Source of the DNA: Candidatus Daviesbacteria bacterium GW2011_GWA1_41_61 | GTDB taxonomy: Bacteria > Patescibacteriota > Microgenomatia > Daviesbacterales > UBA10151 | Reading direction: 5' to 3' | DNA length: 64,000 bases | NCBI GenBank assembly: GCA_000997385.1 | Contig: LCBT01000004.1 | Coordinates: forward strand, 8,002 to 72,001 | Shown here: positions 33,339 through 44,858 of the stretch, piece after piece | How positions within the stretch are numbered: position 1 is the stretch's first letter | Layout: each line of letters begins with the position of its first letter | The notes under the pieces: model-generated | Database searches by the model: none | What the model was told of the DNA's origin: nothing | The model's input: the letters and a program-made list of their open reading frames with translations, nothing else | Position numbers and translations under genes: made by a program

Positions 33339-33411
33339 ATATAATAAGCCTTTTGTAATAGCCTGAATCTCGTTTTTTGGGTAGTTGCAGTAAAAAGTCC
33401 AAATAAAATAT

Positions 33412-34454: not shown

Positions 34455-34688
34455 ATGGATAAATTAAGTTTGGAAAAGATTAATATGTGGAAGGGAAAAC
34501 TGCAAAAACTCCAAAAAGAGTACGAGGAGATTATGCAAAAAAGAGGTGAAGCCATGCAGATGGGAGATCTGAGAGAGAATGCTGCTTTCCAATCTTTATC
34601 TGAAGATGCTGATACCTGGCGGGCCAGAATGGAAGAGCTAAAAAATATTATTACCAAACTGGAACATGAAAACCCGGGAGCCAAATAA
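34455..34688 (+). CDS. Gre-factor N-terminal coiled-coil domain-only protein (77 aa)
   Basis: [30 protein letters not shown] aligns to GreA [30 protein letters not shown] incl. acidic tip D..E; no C-terminal FKBP-like domain; strong SD; TAATG overlap with fusA. Confidence 0.7.
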
Positions 34689-36829
34689 TGGCTGTAGCAA
34701 CTCAAACCAAAAGGGATTTTCCCTTAGATAGAATTAGAAATATCGGCATCATCGCCCATATTGATGCTGGAAAAACTACCACCACCGAAAGAATCCTTTT
34801 TTATACCGGTAGAACTTATAAAATCGGCGATATTGATGAGGGTACTACCACTACTGACTGGATGGAGCAGGAAAAAGAGAGGGGAATCACCATTGTTTCC
34901 GCTGCCATTACTACTTTTTGGATCCCTAAATCTGGGCCTTTTGAGGGTCAGGAAACCAGAATTAATATTATCGATACTCCGGGGCACGTTGACTTTACTG
35001 CTGAGGTAGAAAGGTCACTGCGGGTTTTAGACGGGGGAGTAATTGTGCTGGATGCAGCTTCCGGTGTTCAATCCCAAACTGAAACTGTCTGGAGACAGGC
35101 TAACAAATATAAAGTCCCTTTAGTGGCTTTTGCCAACAAGATGGATGTGGTGGGGGCAGATTTTTTAGCTACCATCCAATCAGCCAGAGATAGGTTAGGA
35201 GCCAATGCCTTGCCTTATAATCTGCCGATTGGCAGTGAAAATGATTTTAAAGGGGTGGTTGATCTTTTAACTAAAAAAGCCTATATCTGGGAGGGTGATC
35301 AAACTGGAGCCAAGTTTAATGAAGCAGAGATTCCTGCCCGGATGGTTGATCTGGTTGCTACCTGGCGGGATAAGTTGGTGGAAGAGATCTCCGGGACTGA
35401 TGATGTCTTGATGGAAAAGTATTTGAATGGGGAAGAGATCAGTGTTGAGGAGCTTAAAAAATCCTTAAGACAAGCGGTCATTGATAATAAAATTGTCCCA
35501 GTAATGGCTGGGTCATCTCTTAGGAATAAAGGTGTCCAGCCGATGCTGGATGCAGCAGTAGAGTTTTTGCCTTCCCCTCAGGATGTTTCGGAAGTGGTAG
35601 GAGAAAATCCCCGTTCCGGTGAACAAGAGATTAGAAAAGCTGACCCTAAATCCCCTTTGTCAGCCTTAGCTTTTAAGATTCAAGTTGATCCCCATGTGGG
35701 GAAGCTAACTTATCTGCGGGTTTATTCGGGGACTATTCAATCTGGTTCTTATCTTTATAACTCCTCCAAAGGCATTAAAGAAAGAGTCGGTCGCTTAATG
35801 TTGATGCATGCCAATGACCGGGAGGAGATTGAGGAAGCTTACGCCGGAGAGATTGTGGCAGCAGTGGGCTTAAAAGAGACTATTACCGGCAACACTTTAT
35901 GTGATGAAAACGCCCCGATTGTTTTAGAGTCCATTACTTTTCCTGATCCGGTGATCTCTTTAGCTATTGAACCTAAAACCAAATCTGACCAGGAAAAATT
36001 AGGCACGGCACTATCAAGGTTATCAGAAGAAGATCCTACCTTCAGAGTCAAAGTCGACCAGGAAACCGGCCAGACCATTATTGCCGGAATGGGAGAGTTA
36101 CAGCTGGAGGTGCTAGTAGATAGGATGAGGCGGGAGTTTAAAGTGGAGGCTAATGTCGGCCAACCTCAAGTAGCTTATAAAGAGACTATCACTCAAACTG
36201 CCAGCGGTGAGGGTAAATACATCCGTCAAACTGGAGGACGGGGTCAATACGGGCATTGTTTTCTAAGAATTGAACCTCTTCCCCGGGGGCAAGGCCGGGA
36301 GTTTGCCTCAGCGATTGTTGGCGGAGCCATACCTCGGGAGTTTATCCCAGCTATTGAAAAGGGGGTTTTAGAAAAAGAAGATACCGGTATTTTGGCAGGT
36401 TATCCTGTCACCGATATTAAGGTGGCAGTTTATGATGGATCTTTCCATGATGTGGATTCTTCAGAGATGGCTTTTAAGATTGCCGGTTCCCTAGGGCTTT
36501 CTGAAGCTGCCAAAAAGGCTGAAATGGTGTTACTTGAGCCTATCATGAAGGTGGAGGTCACCACTCCGGAGGAGTTTTTGGGAGACATGATTGCTGATTT
36601 ATCTTCTAAAAGGGCGCAGATTCAATCTACGGAGATGAGAGGTAATGCCAGGGTAGTACTAGCTTTAGTTCCCTTAGCTGAGATGGGTGGTTATGCTACT
36701 ACTATCAGAAGTATGTCTCAAGGAAGAGCTACTTACTATATGGAAGCAGATCACTATGAGGAAGTTCCCAAAAATATTACCCAAAAGATCGTTGAATCCT
36801 CCGGCTTCACCGGCAGGGTAGAACACTAA
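34688..36829 (+). CDS. fusA: elongation factor G
   Basis: 713 aa, G-domain motifs [21 protein letters not shown]. Confidence 0.97.
36800..36829. repeat. direct repeat copy A (3' end of fusA, tccggcttcaccggcagggtagaacactaa)
   Basis: 29/30 identical to 39097-39126. Confidence 0.85.
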
Positions 36830-36834
36830 AAAAG

Positions 36835-39042
36835 TTACTTTTTCTCTTTAAGCTTAACTCCTGCAATAATCATAGCCTCAATGAAAGATTGTCTACCTTC
36901 TGCAGTAACAACGTCTATAATCTTAGATATATTCTTTCTTTTTTCAAAATATTCGGGGTGTTCTTGCTCTAACCTAGCCTTTACCTGCAAGGCTATTGAA
37001 GATAGTCGAGATTCCCTACCCGTAAAAATTAGATGTAGGATGGACTGCGTTAGTGGCAAATCTGCTTCACGAACTTGCTGAATAGTAGTGTCTTTTAGTT
37101 TTTCCCCTGCAGCTACCATTGCGTTAATAAATATTTGTCTACCTTCAAAGGTGACTGCGTCTACTATAAAAGACCCGTTCATTCTTTTTTTAAAATATTC
37201 AGGGTACTCGCTCTCTAATCTCTCTTTTACCTCTTTAACTCTTAGTGATAACCTTGTTCCATCACCTATAAAAACCAATTTTACACTCTCCCATGTTAAA
37301 GCCATATCTGTATCCTTAAGTTCCTGGATATCTTTGTCTTGCAGCGCTATACCCGCGGCTAACATTTCTTCAATAAAAGCTTGTTTGCCTTCAAGGGTAA
37401 CGATTGAGATCACATTCGGCCCACTCCTTCTTTTAGAAAAATATTCTGGATGCTCAGTTTCCATTCTTGTTTTTACTTGTAGGGCCAGAGGAGATAACTT
37501 CTCAAACCCGCCCCTAAAGACCTCTGTCAAACCAGCATGCGATAGTGGGATTTCTCCAGCTATAACATCTATTAGTAACCCCTTCCCAAGATCTGAAATA
37601 TCTACCGAGTCGCCTTTCCTTCTTATGTTTTGCACTACATCAAGTTCAGTTAATCCTGCAATGTCCTGCTCGGGCCCAAGGTATAATAGACCACTCGGTA
37701 GTTGTCTAACACTTCCTTTCATCCACATACCCATGTTATATGACCAGCCATATTGATTGGTTTGGTAGAGGAAGTCTAGATTAAGACCAAATAATTTACC
37801 TTCAAAGCGGCGAGCTAGTCTTCCAACGTATTGGGTATAACGTAGGTCGGAATCGGTAGGAGAAGCCCAAACTAAAACTTCAGTAAATGGAGCATCAAAT
37901 CCTTCTGATGCAACATAGGGAGATATTAAAACCTGAATGGAACGAGGGTCGCTTTGTGCAAGTTTATATCTTTCAATAGTGTCGAGAGCTGGAATTTCCT
38001 CATTATGAATTTGTCTTGCAGCTTGCTGGTTGACAGCAACACCTACCTTAATACCTTTAGCATTTAGAAGTTGTGCCAATTCTTGAGCCTCCCAGACAAA
38101 GTTTACAGCCACAACAGTTTTGTATTCTTTTTCACCATCTCTGATGATATTTGCAACCTTATCTGCAATAAATGGCCTCAGTTCTGGACTTTTCTTTAAA
38201 ATTTGCTCGAGCTTTCGATAATCAATCTGTCCATTTAGTTTAGTGGGGATCTCTTCTACTAGACCTGTTGTATTAATTTGCATTCCCAAAAGAGGAGGAA
38301 GTAATCTTGACTCTTGTGCTTCGGGCAAAGGGAAATTATAAGCAACCTCAAAACCATATTGTTCTGGCCTCTTCATTTGACCACTGTGTCTGTGGGGAGT
38401 AGCAGTGAACCCTATTACATTTGGGAATTGACAAACTGCGGAAGCTCGTTGAGCGGTTCCGATATTGTGAACCTCGTCAACAATCACTAAATCAAATTCT
38501 GCTGGATCAAGCTGACCTCTTTTGTAGGCTGATTGAATAGTTTGGATTGTTGCCACTCTCACATCGACGTCTTTATCCTTAAATCTTCCTACCCGATAAA
38601 ATGGAAGATCCTCTTGTTCGATTTCAAGAACTTCCTCGACGTCCTCTGTTTCTGTGGTATCTCTTTCTAACTCCTCTGACTCAGTATAGTCAACATAGTC
38701 AACACCACCATTAGATTCTTCTTGATACCTTATTAAAGCAGCATGCGCTTGTTGCACTAAAGTCAACTTTGTTCCGGCGATAAAAAGTACTCTTGCTCCA
38801 GGGTTTCTGCTTCTCCATCTTTCAATAACTTCATGCTCAACCCTTGTTTTACCGATACCTGTTGCCATAGCAGCGATAGGAAAATGGCTGCCTACTTCTC
38901 TTCTCTCAAGATGATCTAAAACTGTCTGAGCTGCCTCATACTGTTTTTGGTCTAACAGGGTTTGTAAATCTGGGGTCAGAAGACCATCTCCACCAACCTC
39001 ACCTGTCAAGCCACGAATTTTTTGCTCACCACTTCTTTCCAT
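36835..39042 (-). CDS. SF2 DEVH-box helicase (ResIII/COG1061-like) with three C-terminal about 80-aa tandem repeats
   Basis: Motif I ATGIGKT, motif II VIVDEVHN, motif III GFTATP, motif VI QYVGRLARR; C-terminal triple repeat (L.VK.RLE.EHPEYF.KR......D.VT.EG.Q.FI.AM..AG.KL); six-frame track ORF runs to 39123 through repeat copy B, start probably ATG 39042 preceded by tgatataat. Confidence 0.75.
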   Translation of the reverse strand: MERSGEQKIRGLTGEVGGDGLLTPDLQTLLDQKQYEAAQTVLDHLERREVGSHFPIAAMATGIGKTRVEHEVIERWRSRNPGARVLFIAGTKLTLVQQAHAALIRYQEESNGGVDYVDYTESEELERDTTETEDVEEVLEIEQEDLPFYRVGRFKDKDVDVRVATIQTIQSAYKRGQLDPAEFDLVIVDEVHNIGTAQRASAVCQFPNVIGFTATPHRHSGQMKRPEQYGFEVAYNFPLPEAQESRLLPPLLGMQINTTGLVEEIPTKLNGQIDYRKLEQILKKSPELRPFIADKVANIIRDGEKEYKTVVAVNFVWEAQELAQLLNAKGIKVGVAVNQQAARQIHNEEIPALDTIERYKLAQSDPRSIQVLISPYVASEGFDAPFTEVLVWASPTDSDLRYTQYVGRLARRFEGKLFGLNLDFLYQTNQYGWSYNMGMWMKGSVRQLPSGLLYLGPEQDIAGLTELDVVQNIRRKGDSVDISDLGKGLLIDVIAGEIPLSHAGLTEVFRGGFEKLSPLALQVKTRMETEHPEYFSKRRSGPNVISIVTLEGKQAFIEEMLAAGIALQDKDIQELKDTDMALTWESVKLVFIGDGTRLSLRVKEVKERLESEYPEYFKKRMNGSFIVDAVTFEGRQIFINAMVAAGEKLKDTTIQQVREADLPLTQSILHLIFTGRESRLSSIALQVKARLEQEHPEYFEKRKNISKIIDVVTAEGRQSFIEAMIIAGVKLKEKK
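36838..37497 (-). repeat. three tandem about 240-bp coding repeats (helicase C-terminal modules)
   Basis: Protein-level repeats of 84, 82 and 54 aa with shared EHPEYF.KR / EG.Q.FI.AM motifs. Confidence 0.5.
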
Positions 39043-39096
39043 GAGGCTAATTATATCAGAAGGTATTAGAGCATACAAATTATAGGATATCTGACT

Positions 39097-39126
39097 TCCG
39101 GCTTCACCGGCAGAGTAGAACACTAA
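39097..39126. repeat. direct repeat copy B (tccggcttcaccggcagagtagaacactaa)
   Basis: Duplicates last 9 codons + stop of fusA with 1 mismatch, 2297 bp downstream of copy A. Confidence 0.85.
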
Positions 39127-39132
39127 TATTGG

Positions 39133-39161
39133 TGTTGACTAAACGTACGGAATAACGTACA
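39133..39161 (+). promoter_or_regulatory. sigma70-like promoter TTGACT-17-TACAAT with CGTACG dyad, 8 nt before the Phd/YefM-like ATG
   Basis: ttgact aaacgtacggaataacg tacaat; acgtac repeated twice (possible autoregulatory operator). Confidence 0.5.
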
Positions 39162-39169
39162 ATACCCTC

Positions 39170-39367
39170 ATGACTACAGTTTCTGCCACAACTGCCAGAG
39201 AAAAATTATATGATCTCATTGAAGAGGTGAATAGGTCTGGGAAAATGATTGGTATTACTAACAGGGGGGTGTTAAAAGCTGTATTGATTAGTCAAAAGGA
39301 ATACGAGTTCATGGTGAATATTGTTTTTAAGATATCAAAAAGAGAGTTAAAAAATGTAAGATTTTAG
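39170..39367 (+). CDS. Phd/YefM-family antitoxin-like protein
   Basis: TTAREKLYDLIEEVNRSGKMIGITNRGVLKAVLISQKEYEFM matches Phd/YefM N-terminal fold consensus. Confidence 0.65.
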   Translation: MTTVSATTAREKLYDLIEEVNRSGKMIGITNRGVLKAVLISQKEYEFMVNIVFKISKRELKNVRF

Positions 39368-39368
39368 A

Positions 39369-39920
39369 GTGGCTCAATCTAATTTCTGGACCATTGCTGA
39401 CAATTTACCACCAAGACCTGATTGTTTAGTAGTTATATCCTACTCTGTTAAAGATAAAAGTGAACCTACAAGACAAACCAAAGCTTTAATAAAAGAAGCT
39501 TTTGGATGGTGGAAAAAATTTCCCCAAGCTAAAATTATTATGTCTACTGGAGATAATCAGGGACTAGGATTGCCTAATTCTAAAGTCATGGCAGACTATG
39601 GTGTTAGTCTAGGTCTTCCCAGGAAAAATATTATTGAGGAGGAGAAATCTCAAGATACTTATGAGAACCTACTTTATTCCAGGAAGATTATTCAAAAAGA
39701 GGGGTTTAAACAACCTACCTTAGTAGTTTTAGATCTTCATAGTAGAAGAGCTCTAGCCCTAGCCAGAAAGTTGAGCTGGAAAAATTTCTACTGGATAACT
39801 GTTTTTAGTCAAGGTGAATCAGGATATGGGAAAAAAGCTCTCCAGACTTCCTCCCGCCCTGTGATCTTAATCTATGAGATGCTAGCTTATGTTTATAATA
39901 TGCTAAAAGGAGAGTTATAG
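39369..39920 (+). CDS. DUF218/YdcF (SanA/ElyC)-like domain protein
   Basis: DCLVVIS...AKIIMSTGD...MADYGVSLGLPRKNIIEEEKSQDTYENLLYSRKII...LVVLDLHSRRA matches DUF218 motifs; GTG start 1 nt after Phd-like stop. Confidence 0.65.
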   Translation: MAQSNFWTIADNLPPRPDCLVVISYSVKDKSEPTRQTKALIKEAFGWWKKFPQAKIIMSTGDNQGLGLPNSKVMADYGVSLGLPRKNIIEEEKSQDTYENLLYSRKIIQKEGFKQPTLVVLDLHSRRALALARKLSWKNFYWITVFSQGESGYGKKALQTSSRPVILIYEMLAYVYNMLKGEL

Positions 39921-39971
39921 TCTTTATAAATCAGATCTTGCTTTTTTGAGAGAAATAGTGTAAAAATAAGA

Positions 39972-40024
39972 TGCAAATTAAGAAACTTAATTTGCAGACC
40001 CGCTTGTGGAAAGTGGGTTTTTAA
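39972..40024 (+). terminator. tandem hairpins: 11-bp perfect stem (tgcaaattaag-aaa-cttaatttgca) then intrinsic terminator (acccgctt-gtgga-aagtgggt + T5)
   Basis: Read directly downstream of the DUF218 gene. Confidence 0.55.
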
Positions 40025-40096
40025 TGGGCTTGAAATGTAGGACTTGATTTTTCAAGTAATCTTGTTTAAACTACTTTATCAAGTAAGAGGTTGTGC

Positions 40097-40153
40097 TGGA
40101 TGATTTGGCAGTACAAACTTTAGAAAAAATAAAGGAAAAGTCCAAATCATCCA
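40097..40153 (+). promoter_or_regulatory. perfect 12-bp inverted repeat (tggatgatttgg / ccaaatcatcca) with 33-nt purine-rich loop ending 7 nt before tuf ATG
   Basis: Read directly; potential 5'UTR hairpin or operator. Confidence 0.4.
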
Positions 40154-40159
40154 AAATAT

Positions 40160-41344
40160 ATGGCAGAGGCAAAAAAATTTGAAAGAACCAAACCGCACGT
40201 GAACATTGGTACCATGGGTCATGTTGACCATGGTAAGACCACTTTAACGGCGGCTATCATGACAGTGTTGGCCGGTAAGGGAATGGCCCAGAAGTCTTCT
40301 GTTGATGATATTGATAACGCTCCTGAAGAGAAGGCCCGCGGTATTACTATTAATATTTCCCACCGCGAATATGAGACCGAAAAGAGACATTATGCTCACA
40401 TTGACATGCCGGGTCATGCTGATTACATCAAAAACATGATTACCGGCGCTGCTCAAACGGATGGAGCTATTTTGGTAGTTTCGGCTCCCGATGGCCCAAT
40501 GCCCCAAACTCGAGAGCATTTACTCTTAGCCAGACAGGTAGGGGTTCCAGCAATTGTAGTTTACCTAAACAAAACTGACCAGGTTTCTGATCCCGAACTT
40601 TTGGAACTGGTGGAAGAAGAGATCCGCGATCTTTTGGCCAAATACCAATTCGATAAAAACTCCCCCATTATTAAAGGTTCAGCTTTGAAGGCCTTAGAAG
40701 GTGACACGGAAGCTGTTAAATCTATTGAAGAGCTGATGAAAGCTGTTGATGAGTGGATCCCTACTCCTACCCGGGATGTTGATAAACCATTCCTGATGGC
40801 TGTAGAAGATGTTTTCTCTATCAAGGGAAGAGGAACTGTTGTTACAGGGAGGATTGAAAGAGGTAAAGTTAAGATTAACGAGGAAATTGAAATTGTAGGA
40901 ATCAGACCAACGAAGAAAAGCGTTGTGACTGGAGTAGAAATGTTTCATAAAATGCTGGATGAAGGTCAAGCTGGAGATAATGCCGGGATACTTCTTCGGG
41001 GTATTGAAAAAGATGATGTGGAGCGTGGTCAGGTTTTAGCTAAACCGGGCTCAATCACACCCCACTCTGAATTTGAAGCTGAAGTTTATGTCCTTTCTAA
41101 GGAAGAGGGTGGAAGACATACCCCGTTCTTTAAAGGCTACAGACCGCAATTCTATATTAGAACTACTGATGTGACCGGTGAGGTTATCTTACCGGAAGGT
41201 CTGGAGATGGTTATGCCGGGTGATACTACTAAGATGAATGTTAAGTTAATTACTCCGGTAGCTATGGAGGAGGGGTTAAGATTTGCTGTCCGGGAGGGTG
41301 GTAAGACCGTTGGAGCTGGAGTCATTACTAAGATTCTTAAATAA
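40160..41344 (+). CDS. tuf: elongation factor Tu
   Basis: 394 aa, [22 protein letters not shown]. Confidence 0.97.
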
Positions 41345-43595: not shown

Positions 43596-44008
43596 TGGAG
43601 ATCGTTTTAAGAAAACCAGTAGTGACGGAAAAATCAATGAAGTTGGCTGCTTTGGGCTGGTACACCTTTGTGGTAAATAAAAAAGCCCGTAAGCCAGTTA
43701 TTGCCAGGGCTGTAGAAGAATCCTTCGGGGTCAATGTAGCGGAGATAAAAACTACCACCTTTAAACCTGAAACAAAGATGCAAAGATCCAAACGCCATCC
43801 TTATCAGGTTCCAGGATATAAAAAAGCTGTGGTTAAGCTTAAAGAAGGACAAAAAATTGCTTTGTTTGAAACAGAAACCGGAGATAAAGAGGAAAAATCT
43901 ACTCCAGAAGTTAAAGAGAAGAAAAGCTTACTTAAAGGAACAAAAGTGAAGATAGAAAGAGGCGGAAAAGAGAAGGAGACCGAAGTGGGAGGAGAAAGGA
44001 ATGTCTAA
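43595..44008 (+). CDS. rplW: 50S ribosomal protein L23 with Lys/Glu-rich C-terminal extension
   Basis: L23 core (about 95 aa) + about 40-aa charged tail. Confidence 0.9.
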   Translation: MEIVLRKPVVTEKSMKLAALGWYTFVVNKKARKPVIARAVEESFGVNVAEIKTTTFKPETKMQRSKRHPYQVPGYKKAVVKLKEGQKIALFETETGDKEEKSTPEVKEKKSLLKGTKVKIERGGKEKETEVGGERNV

Positions 44009-44858
44009 AAATATGGCTTTAGCGCAGTATGAGCGAAGCTCTAAACTGGTCGCTTACAAGGAAAAAACTAATACCAGAAGGTTTACCTCAAAGCTTTTAA
44101 GACCTGCTAAAAGCGGTCAGGAAATAAGGGGTTTAAGGGTTATTTTACCCAAAAAGAGCGGTCGTTCAGGCGGTAAAATTACGGTGCGTCATCAAGGAGG
44201 CCGGCACAAAAGACAATACCGTCTGATAGATTTTAAGCGGGGCAAATGGGGAATTGAGGGCACAGTGGCAGCTTTAGAGTATGACCCAAACCGTAATGTC
44301 AATATCGCTTTGGTAAAGTATACTGATGGAGAGTTTCGCTATATTCTGGCTCCCCAGGGGCTGAAAGCAGGGTCTAAGGTCGAAGCTGGAAATAAGGTGG
44401 AGGTTAAGGTTGGTAATGCCATGAAATTAAAGAGTTTGCCGGTGGGAACGGTTGTTCATAATGTTGAACTGACGCCGGGCAAGGGAGGCCAAATTGGCCG
44501 CAGCGCTGGTACTTCTTTAACTTTGCAAGCTAAACAGGCACCCTTTGCACACTTGAAAATGCCTTCAGGTGAGATTAGAATGGTTCCTTTAGAATCTGTG
44601 GCAACTGTTGGGGTATTAGGAAATGAGGAATGGAAGCATCTTAAGTTTGGAAAAGCGGGAAGAGTAAGGCATATGGGTATCCGCCCGACAGTCCGGGGAA
44701 CTGCCCAAGACCCGCGTTCTCATCCTCATGGAGGTGGTGAAGCTCGCTCTGGAGTGGGAAGAAAGAAACCAATGACCAAATATGGCCGGCCAGCAGTAGG
44801 GAAGACCAGGCAGAAAGGAAAACTGAGTAATAGATTCATAATAAAGAGACGCCGTTAA
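44001..44858 (+). CDS. rplB: 50S ribosomal protein L2
   Basis: 285 aa, conserved L2. Confidence 0.95.
   Translation: MSKNMALAQYERSSKLVAYKEKTNTRRFTSKLLRPAKSGQEIRGLRVILPKKSGRSGGKITVRHQGGRHKRQYRLIDFKRGKWGIEGTVAALEYDPNRNVNIALVKYTDGEFRYILAPQGLKAGSKVEAGNKVEVKVGNAMKLKSLPVGTVVHNVELTPGKGGQIGRSAGTSLTLQAKQAPFAHLKMPSGEIRMVPLESVATVGVLGNEEWKHLKFGKAGRVRHMGIRPTVRGTAQDPRSHPHGGGEARSGVGRKKPMTKYGRPAVGKTRQKGKLSNRFIIKRRR

Follow-up and report, generated by a model that had tools for sequence, protein, structure and literature searches.

Orphan (solo) antitoxins and decaying toxin-antitoxin (TA) loci are well known and have been discussed in reviews. The Escherichia coli YefM operator was shown experimentally to consist of paired TGTACA cores (L and S) placed 12 bp centre-to-centre and covering the -10 box (PMC1802561). 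A second protein family also has to be considered, that of DUF218, in which E. coli SanA and ElyC act in the envelope and carry a membrane anchor, and YdcF is cytosolic and binds S-adenosylmethionine (SAM) (PMC12176290). Both families meet in a 64-kb stretch of a Candidatus Daviesbacteria genome (Microgenomates, candidate phyla radiation (CPR)) from Rifle groundwater, the whole of which is referred to below as the window. Within the str/S10 region, in the gene order rpsL, rpsG, fusA (34688-36829), helicase, 65-amino-acid (aa) open reading frame (ORF), 183-aa ORF, tuf (40160-41344), rpsJ and following genes, the window carries a Phd/YefM-type ORF of 65 aa, here called Phd' (39170-39367, + strand, ATG start), followed by an ORF of 183 aa (39369-39920, + strand, GTG start) that encodes a full-length, soluble, YdcF-like DUF218 protein. 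The Phd' stop codon TAG (39365-39367) and the GTG are separated by the single base A 39368, exactly the tight spacing that the initial annotation had described. That annotation saw in the two genes an unusual TA-like pairing; the comparisons presented here point to a different history. The locus is rather likely to be a decayed Phd-ParE cassette which has lost its toxin, and whose promoter, half-antitoxin and toxin start now stand before a resident DUF218 gene.

The arrangement is real. The exact DUF218 protein was present on contigs of the Rifle groundwater project in ENA, JGI and Logan, and because at least 10 contigs assembled independently from these sources carry the same locus sequence, the arrangement is not an assembly artefact; a chimera was likewise ruled out by the recurrence of the same junction in many independent assemblies. 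Over positions 38000-40160 all of these contigs were identical except for one intergenic single-nucleotide polymorphism at 40129 in L126 (L-numbers are labels of homologous DNA loci fetched for comparison). A protein of 99% identity (P0001) represents the same DUF218 gene, with Met instead of Val at the GTG start. The 65-aa product is annotated as a hypothetical protein in the GW2011 Daviesbacteria metagenome-assembled genome (MAG), and no known RNA families or tRNAs were found in or around the locus.

The small protein and its relatives

Profile searches bore out the placement of the 65-aa protein in the Phd/YefM family. Pfam PF02604 (PhdYeFM_antitox) matched with E=1.8e-11 and 44.1 bits (cutoff 29.8), and NCBIfam TIGR01552 (phd_fam) with 35 bits (cutoff 20.8), the PF02604 match being limited to residues 1-54 of the protein and positions 1-53 of the 74 in the profile. 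A search among 5.8 billion proteins recovered 19 relatives besides Phd' itself, all of them 87-111 aa long. The N-terminus MTTVSAT..AR and every invariant column of the family as far as E44 (18 of 18) are kept in Phd', and over the first 46 residues it is identical to bona fide antitoxins at 31-35 positions, compared with 33-39 among the antitoxins themselves. Homology to the relatives then stops, at about residue 44-46. Codons 1-44 (39170-39301, + strand), encoding an intact N-terminal DNA-binding and dimerisation domain, are free of indels and stops, while several indels are found in the 66 nt that follow (codons 45-65 and TAG, 39302-39367, + strand), where the toxin-binding region has been destroyed.

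The C-terminal block of the relatives (approximately SWEAT..V.SDPELVKGIKKGxEDIKKGRVxSWEEVKK) is absent from Phd' in an alignment with all 19, and the ORF is 69 nt, or 23 codons, shorter than those of relatives of 88 aa. A remnant of the missing part was recovered at the DNA level only: AAGATATCAAAAAG (39329-39342) corresponds to the DNA that specifies EDIKK in the relatives, at the orthologous position and in another reading frame, with local alignment significance against dinucleotide shuffles of p<0.002 for L011 and 0.022 for L013. It appears from these alignments that several indels scrambled the 3' part of the ORF and jointly restored the frame at the original stop. Remnants of ParE or of the antitoxin C-terminus were also sought at the protein level, and tblastn with four cassettes yielded nothing beyond the match to the Phd N-terminus. 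The alignment of the family profile with Mycobacterium tuberculosis RelB1 (9G12) and Rv2865 (3G5O) runs end to end, and by analogy with these solved complexes the missing C-terminal part would fall within the toxin-contacting region. Thus, of the features of a type II TA module, the toxin-binding C-terminal segment is wanting in Phd'.

An AlphaFold2 (AF2) model of Phd' had a mean predicted local distance difference test score (pLDDT) of 86.9, rising to about 95 over residues 1-40, and showed the beta-alpha-beta-beta-alpha fold of the Phd/YefM N-domain. The best Foldseek matches of the model were YefM/Phd N-domains, and included Phd cut at residue 57 (3HS2), the isolated DNA-binding domain (4ZLX) and the Phd-operator complexes 4ZM0 and 4ZM2. 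PADLOC gave a marginal match for Phd'.

Phd-ParE cassettes and a probably inherited junction

The cassette family to which the relatives belong is common in Microgenomates. In all seven Phd-ParE cassettes examined, the gene following the antitoxin specified a ParE-family toxin of 82-84 aa, which began 0-1 nt past the antitoxin stop or overlapped it (L011/L012, L013, L014/L015, L121, L122, L123). The upstream regions of the cassettes align with that of the window, the -35 element being TTGAC in three of the four aligned loci, and the 5' chassis common to all comprises the promoter, paired hexamers, an ATG placed after a 6-nt gap and an N-terminus beginning MTTVSAT. In the stretch encoding the conserved N-terminus the cassettes reach a nucleotide identity of only about 62-72% with the window, and it is on those alignments that the reconstruction of events rests.

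The most telling sequence is the junction TAG-A-GTG-GCT-CAA (39365-39377, + strand), an antitoxin-stop/toxin-start junction that would have been inherited from such a cassette. The window continues past the antitoxin stop with A-GTG-GCT-CAA-TCT-AAT-TTC-TGG, translated as M-A-Q-S-N-F-W. In L123 the corresponding sequence is TGA-A-GTG-GCT-CAA-GTA, where V-A-Q-V is the start of ParE, and all 10 of the 10 nt past the stop match the window; L121 has TAA-ATG-GCG-CAA (ParE M-A-Q-V), and L013 has TAA-A-GTG-GCT-ACA. The DUF218 orthologue of L007 starts instead with ATG-CTT-AAT-TTT-TGG (M-L-N-F-W), and DNA homology between it and the window begins at AAT 39381, which is codon 5 of the DUF218 ORF. No homology before that codon was detected when the 3' end and upstream region of Phd' were compared with the sequence upstream of the L007 gene, the intergenic regions downstream of the two DUF218 genes are unrelated, and the MAQ start is absent from all other DUF218 homologues compared. 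Since MAQ matches the ParE start and homology to L007 is picked up only at codon 5, codons 1-3 of the DUF218 ORF would be those of the toxin. No further trace of the toxin was found in the 64 kb by tblastn with four ParE proteins (best E=0.079, away from the locus).

A possible point of origin was also identified. L121, whose elongation factor G (EF-G) is 82% identical to that of the window, carries an intact Phd-ParE cassette about 500 nt downstream of fusA, and this is therefore a plausible ancestral site for the cassette of the window.

Predicted promoter, operator and terminator

A sigma-70-type promoter is predicted at 39135-39163 (+ strand), with -35 TTGACT (39135-39140), a 17-nt spacer and -10 TACAAT (39158-39163). 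It matches the consensus at 10 of 12 positions and was the sole strong + strand site in a scan of 38900-40200, which detected no internal promoter. The ATG of Phd' sits 6 nt past the -10 box, just as it does in the homologous cassettes, and at so short a distance the mRNA would be leaderless or nearly so; transcription probably starts at or next to this ATG, as in the intact cassettes.

Within the promoter spacer and the -10 box lie paired hexamers of operator type (39144-39161, + strand), CGTACG (39144-39149) and CGTACA (39156-39161), separated by GAATAA. They are spaced 12 bp centre-to-centre, and the second overlaps the -10 box. A search for YGTACR-N6-YGTACR gave a single occurrence in the 64 kb and none in 100 shuffles, and the pattern is common to seven of the seven Phd-ParE cassettes examined (L011, L013, L014, L121, L122, L123 and L007, the last being a divergent cassette with TGTACG-N6-TGTACA). 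Both hexamers of the window match the family consensus perfectly. The repeat had earlier been picked out as suited to autoregulation by the Phd-like protein, and to this can now be added that it is a candidate operator conserved across the cassettes and laid out like that of YefM; the idea is well supported by comparison, and at the level of sequence the operator expected of a type II TA module is present.

More distant loci share the layout. In IMG/VR the Phd relatives found were all distant ones with a YoeB-like toxin as partner; in four of the contigs (L117-L120, 1440-1800) the relatives are 80 aa long, about 50% identical in the N-domain and accompanied by a YoeB/Txe-like toxin. AGTACG-N6-CGTACG is found upstream of their Phd genes, so that one operator layout spans ParE-linked and YoeB-linked cassettes.

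The two-gene unit ends in tandem hairpins (39972-39996 and 39998-40018, within 39972-40022, + strand), a likely intrinsic terminator in which the second hairpin is followed by a U-run (minimum free energy -28.4 kcal/mol, z = -2.9). The interval originally delimited, which ends at 40024, closes on this structure.

The DUF218 gene

The 183-aa protein contains all three motifs by which it had been recognised (AKIIMSTGD, SQDTYEN and HSRRA), and the DUF218 assignment withstood the profile search that had been named as a possible refutation, PF02698 matching with E=3.4e-17 and 63.1 bits (cutoff 27.6) over positions 11-132 of 133. Forty-one close homologues of similar length were found, with 50-80% identity, 38 invariant columns and the conserved N-terminus FW.I.D.PP..PDC; the subfamily occurs mainly in Chloroflexota and in a few CPR bacteria. 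The protein has no hydrophobic segment (maximum Kyte-Doolittle value 1.03 in 19-residue windows) and therefore resembles the soluble YdcF type, not the SanA/ElyC type, with a distant family-profile match to E. coli YdcF 3CA8 (E=0.003). Its closest homologue, 80% identical, is that of L007, where it is likewise located in the fusA-tuf gap, without a Phd gene upstream, in a genome with an EF-G 90.6% identical to that of the window. A ratio of nonsynonymous to synonymous substitution rates (dN/dS) of 0.19 was obtained for this pair of orthologues, and the gene is under purifying selection. Judged by these comparisons, it appears to be a resident of the fusA-tuf gap of this lineage and an ordinary soluble member of the YdcF-like group. 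No Shine-Dalgarno sequence precedes its GTG, whereas many internal operon genes of the genome have AGGAG.

Co-occurrence of the two families, the check suggested at the outset, was examined for the DUF218 subfamily of the window protein, within PF02698. A further 101 loci of this subfamily were fetched, of which most belong to Chloroflexota and a few to CPR bacteria; at about 93 loci the sequence extended at least 350 nt upstream of the match. At all loci, 3 kb on either side of the DUF218 gene were scanned in six frames with a hidden Markov model (HMM) of the Phd family, which is sensitive enough to detect the 26%-identical Phd of L007 at E=3e-12. A Phd neighbour was found in none of the approximately 93 informative loci, and the closest orthologue, at the same site, has none either; such an absence from other genomes had been named at the outset as counting against the pairing. 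In the CPR homologues (Amesbacteria, Gottesmanbacteria and a Patescibacteria MAG) the DUF218 gene was solitary and in unrelated contexts. Of the remaining features of a type II module, then, neither a conserved pairing nor an adjacent recognised toxin was found. PADLOC gave no match for the DUF218 protein, and a literature search on DUF218 and antitoxins yielded, among the matches checked, no report of DUF218 as a toxin, these being prefix matches to DUF2185/DUF2188 or concerned with ElyC biology.

A different neighbour was seen in 12 of the 101 loci, all from Chloroflexota (L023, L024, L026, L028, L032, L035, L040, L041, L045, L054, L089 and L098), where the DUF218 gene directly follows, on the same strand, a gene of about 510-530 aa that resembles a major facilitator superfamily (MFS) protein fused to a spermidine synthase. 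The stop of this gene and the DUF218 start often touch; it matches PF01564 with 23.6 bits and PF07690 with 23 bits, the latter below its curated cutoff. Since YdcF binds SAM, the spermidine-synthase-like neighbour and DUF218 may be functionally linked.

Reconstruction of the locus

The juxtaposition of Phd' and DUF218 is best read as a deletion scar and not as a designed pair, because of the truncation, the ParE-linked relatives, the ParE start and the lack of co-occurrence elsewhere. The starting point would have been a Phd-ParE type II TA cassette adjoining a resident ydcF-like gene in the fusA-tuf gap. One lesion, consisting of indels totalling 69 nt, would have removed or frameshifted the C-terminal toxin-binding region of the antitoxin; another, an in-frame deletion, would have taken out everything from parE codon 4 up to roughly the second codon of DUF218. 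The outcome would be an MAQ-DUF218 fusion starting at the toxin's own GTG, in a remaining two-gene unit made up of the promoter with its paired GTAC operator, a 65-aa stub comprising the DNA-binding N-domain only, and DUF218. Translation of DUF218 would then proceed by termination-reinitiation at TAG-A-GTG, as that of parE would have done, and this is the most likely route given that no Shine-Dalgarno sequence is available. Such a dependence would be sufficient reason for the stub to have stayed open as far as its original stop. The sequence in which these events took place is inferred, as are leaderless transcription, translational coupling, and dimerisation and repression by Phd'.

Several observations weigh against this reconstruction. 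The contig of L121 stops 51 nt past parE, so an intact Phd-ParE-DUF218 ancestor was not directly seen. For the 3' half several alignments are possible, which leaves the precise series of indels ambiguous, and the significance of the antitoxin remnant is good for L011 and L013 only. The MAQ match and the 10-nt identity were recognised post hoc, with a chance probability of approximately 4e-4 by our own estimate, given a start codon at the site and six comparison cassettes. A nearly invariant Trp in the helix after beta-3 has been lost from Phd', and AF2 confidence drops past residue 50, so dimerisation and DNA binding might be impaired. Synonymous sites of the Phd N-domain are saturated relative to the relatives, making dN/dS uninformative, and with zero population variation at the locus across about 10 contigs, present-day selection on the stub is not measurable.

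Whether the Phd' stub still represses its own promoter is, on sequence and modelling grounds, close to an even question. Codons 1-44 have remained intact with all invariant residues while the next stretch was scrambled, both operator hexamers are preserved, and truncated Phd N-domains do fold and sit on DNA; on the other side stand the lost Trp, the weak model past residue 50 and a slightly raised nonsynonymous divergence. As no toxin is present to act as corepressor, repression by the stub, if any, would be of the simple kind and not conditionally cooperative, as follows from the general regulation of type II TA modules. If it does occur, the locus could be regarded as a domesticated TA chassis, in which the DNA-binding half of Phd, the GTAC operator, the leaderless promoter and the coupled start serve DUF218 as a dedicated repressor and translation delivery system, a benign gene having replaced the toxin in frame, a proposal that is plausible and is put forward tentatively.

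Alternative explanations

The same origin could have left a 65-aa product that is functionless, either as an ORF that merely delivers ribosomes to DUF218 or as a stub that has not yet decayed, behind a constitutive promoter. The 3' third of the Phd' ORF is indeed a frameshifted remnant, the nearly invariant Trp and the entire C-terminal region are gone, the proportion of nonsynonymous differences (pN) from the relatives is 0.18-0.25, somewhat above the 0.10-0.19 among intact antitoxins, and in a population without variation constraint is not demonstrable. However, 44 codons without an indel or stop and with 18 of 18 invariant residues directly precede 66 nt with several indels, both hexamers still fit the family consensus perfectly, and the N-domain is modelled with confidence, truncated Phd constructs having been solved both folded and in DNA complexes. 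A functionless product is accordingly judged rather unlikely, though it deserves to be kept in view.

The pairing originally proposed, with Phd' and DUF218 as a new TA-like pair in which the small protein would neutralise DUF218 as a toxic or regulated effector, has the appeal of a TA-like layout: a small gene comes first, the coupling is 1 nt and the operator is of the autoregulatory type. New combinations of antitoxin and toxin families are also known to arise. It did not survive the comparisons. The pair is confined to one population and is missing from all of the roughly 93 loci, the same-site orthologue included; the small protein lacks the half with which antitoxins of its family bind the toxin (cf. 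3G5O and 9G12); the start codons of the DUF218 ORF are inherited from ParE; the DUF218 protein, with no PADLOC match and no toxin role in the literature searched, is under purifying selection like its solitary orthologue. A new TA pair is thus highly improbable. Equally remote is a dedicated transcription factor that was never toxin-linked and evolved with DUF218, as the intact N-domain and operator might suggest, since the closest relatives are all ParE-linked antitoxins with matching promoter and operator, a ParE start lies at the junction, an out-of-frame remnant of the antitoxin C-terminus lies within the gene, and no such factor was found at any other DUF218 locus scanned.

Surrounding genes

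The fusA-tuf gap is variable in the Daviesbacteria-like genomes compared here (window 36829-40160; L007 3806-6132; L121 992-2067). In the window it holds the helicase, Phd' and DUF218, in L007 a 272-aa ORF, DUF218 and a 128-aa ORF, and in L121 a 105-aa ORF and the intact Phd-ParE cassette. The helicase (36835-39123, - strand), of superfamily 2 (ResIII/DEAD) and 762 aa, is a divergent neighbour with no evidence for membership in the two-gene unit. It has three C-terminal repeats of about 70 aa with the motif EHPEYF..R, and its stop is 5 nt from that of fusA. PADLOC detected helicase-core similarity only, to type IV restriction and PbeA proteins. The gene is missing from the gaps of L007 and L121 and can be considered variable cargo; in some assemblies it is called from an internal ATG, giving 735 aa (L002/L125, compared with window 39043-39123). 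In L002, rplB is split into two ORFs (window 44001-44858), which may reflect strain or assembly differences.

Upstream of fusA, the rpsG-fusA interval of L007 contains a peptidase S26 gene and a second, divergent Phd-ParE cassette, and in the window an ORF of 77 aa between rpsG and fusA (approximately 34455-34688; L001 1087-1320), abutting the fusA start, has a weak Pfam match to GreA_GreB_N. The genes rpsL and tuf have in common the upstream sequence GTCCAAAT ... AAAATAT directly before the ATG (33392-33411 and 40135-40159, respectively), without a Shine-Dalgarno sequence. First genes of operons in the window mostly lack one, and internal ribosomal-protein genes have AGGAG.

Comparison with known systems

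The locus probably descends from, and would work like, a Phd/YefM-ParE type II module but is no longer one, because the toxin-binding segment, the toxin gene and a conserved pairing are all missing. It provides a sequence-resolved case of the death of a chromosomal TA cassette, in which the toxin would have been excised, the antitoxin trimmed to its DNA-binding domain and the control region inherited. It also removes a false lead, as the locus alone gives no ground for listing DUF218 among candidate toxins. For annotation, the lesson is that a Phd/YefM Pfam match next to a tightly coupled ORF is insufficient for a TA call, and that antitoxin length and partner conservation should also be checked. 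If the stub does repress, the locus would be a naturally occurring case in which a minimal-genome CPR bacterium has turned TA regulatory elements to the control of a gene that is not a toxin.

The closest counterparts are the Phd/YefM antitoxins paired with ParE/RelE toxins, namely M. tuberculosis RelBE2 (Rv2865-2866, 3G5O) and RelBE1 (9G12) and the CPR cassettes (L011, L013, L014 and L121-L123), which are alike in N-domain sequence and predicted fold. The CPR cassettes further resemble the window in promoter and operator, in leaderless-type spacing and in the stop/start junction. In contrast to these systems, the window has no toxin gene, the toxin-binding part of its antitoxin stub has been lost or put out of frame, and what follows the stub is DUF218, apparently on codons 1-3 of the toxin. 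The operators of E. coli yefM-yoeB and of axe-txe likewise consist of paired GTAC-core hexamers with a 6-bp spacer and overlap the -10 box (layout via YefM). They differ in having TGTACA cores where the predicted operator of the window has CGTACG/CGTACA, and conditional cooperativity, which requires a corepressor toxin, would be impossible at the window locus.

In size and topology the 65-aa product is similar to the truncated N-domain of P1 Phd (3HS2, 4ZLX; 4ZM0/4ZM2), a Phd-fold module of about 50-58 residues, although those were made in the laboratory from a Doc-linked antitoxin and are 25-32% identical, and the stub of the window is natural and has a frameshifted tail. The DUF218 protein shares with E. 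coli YdcF (3CA8) the PF02698 domain, solubility and the lack of a membrane anchor, but has 183 aa against 266 aa and is only distantly similar (the profile match of E=0.003 given above). Finally, orphan antitoxins and degenerate chromosomal TA loci have also lost the toxin and kept an antitoxin-like gene, but the window in addition keeps the operon architecture, with a housekeeping-type gene that appears to have been spliced in frame onto the toxin initiation site. This apparent in-frame capture of a toxin initiation site, together with the cassette promoter and operator, by a neighbouring gene is the unusual detail of the locus.

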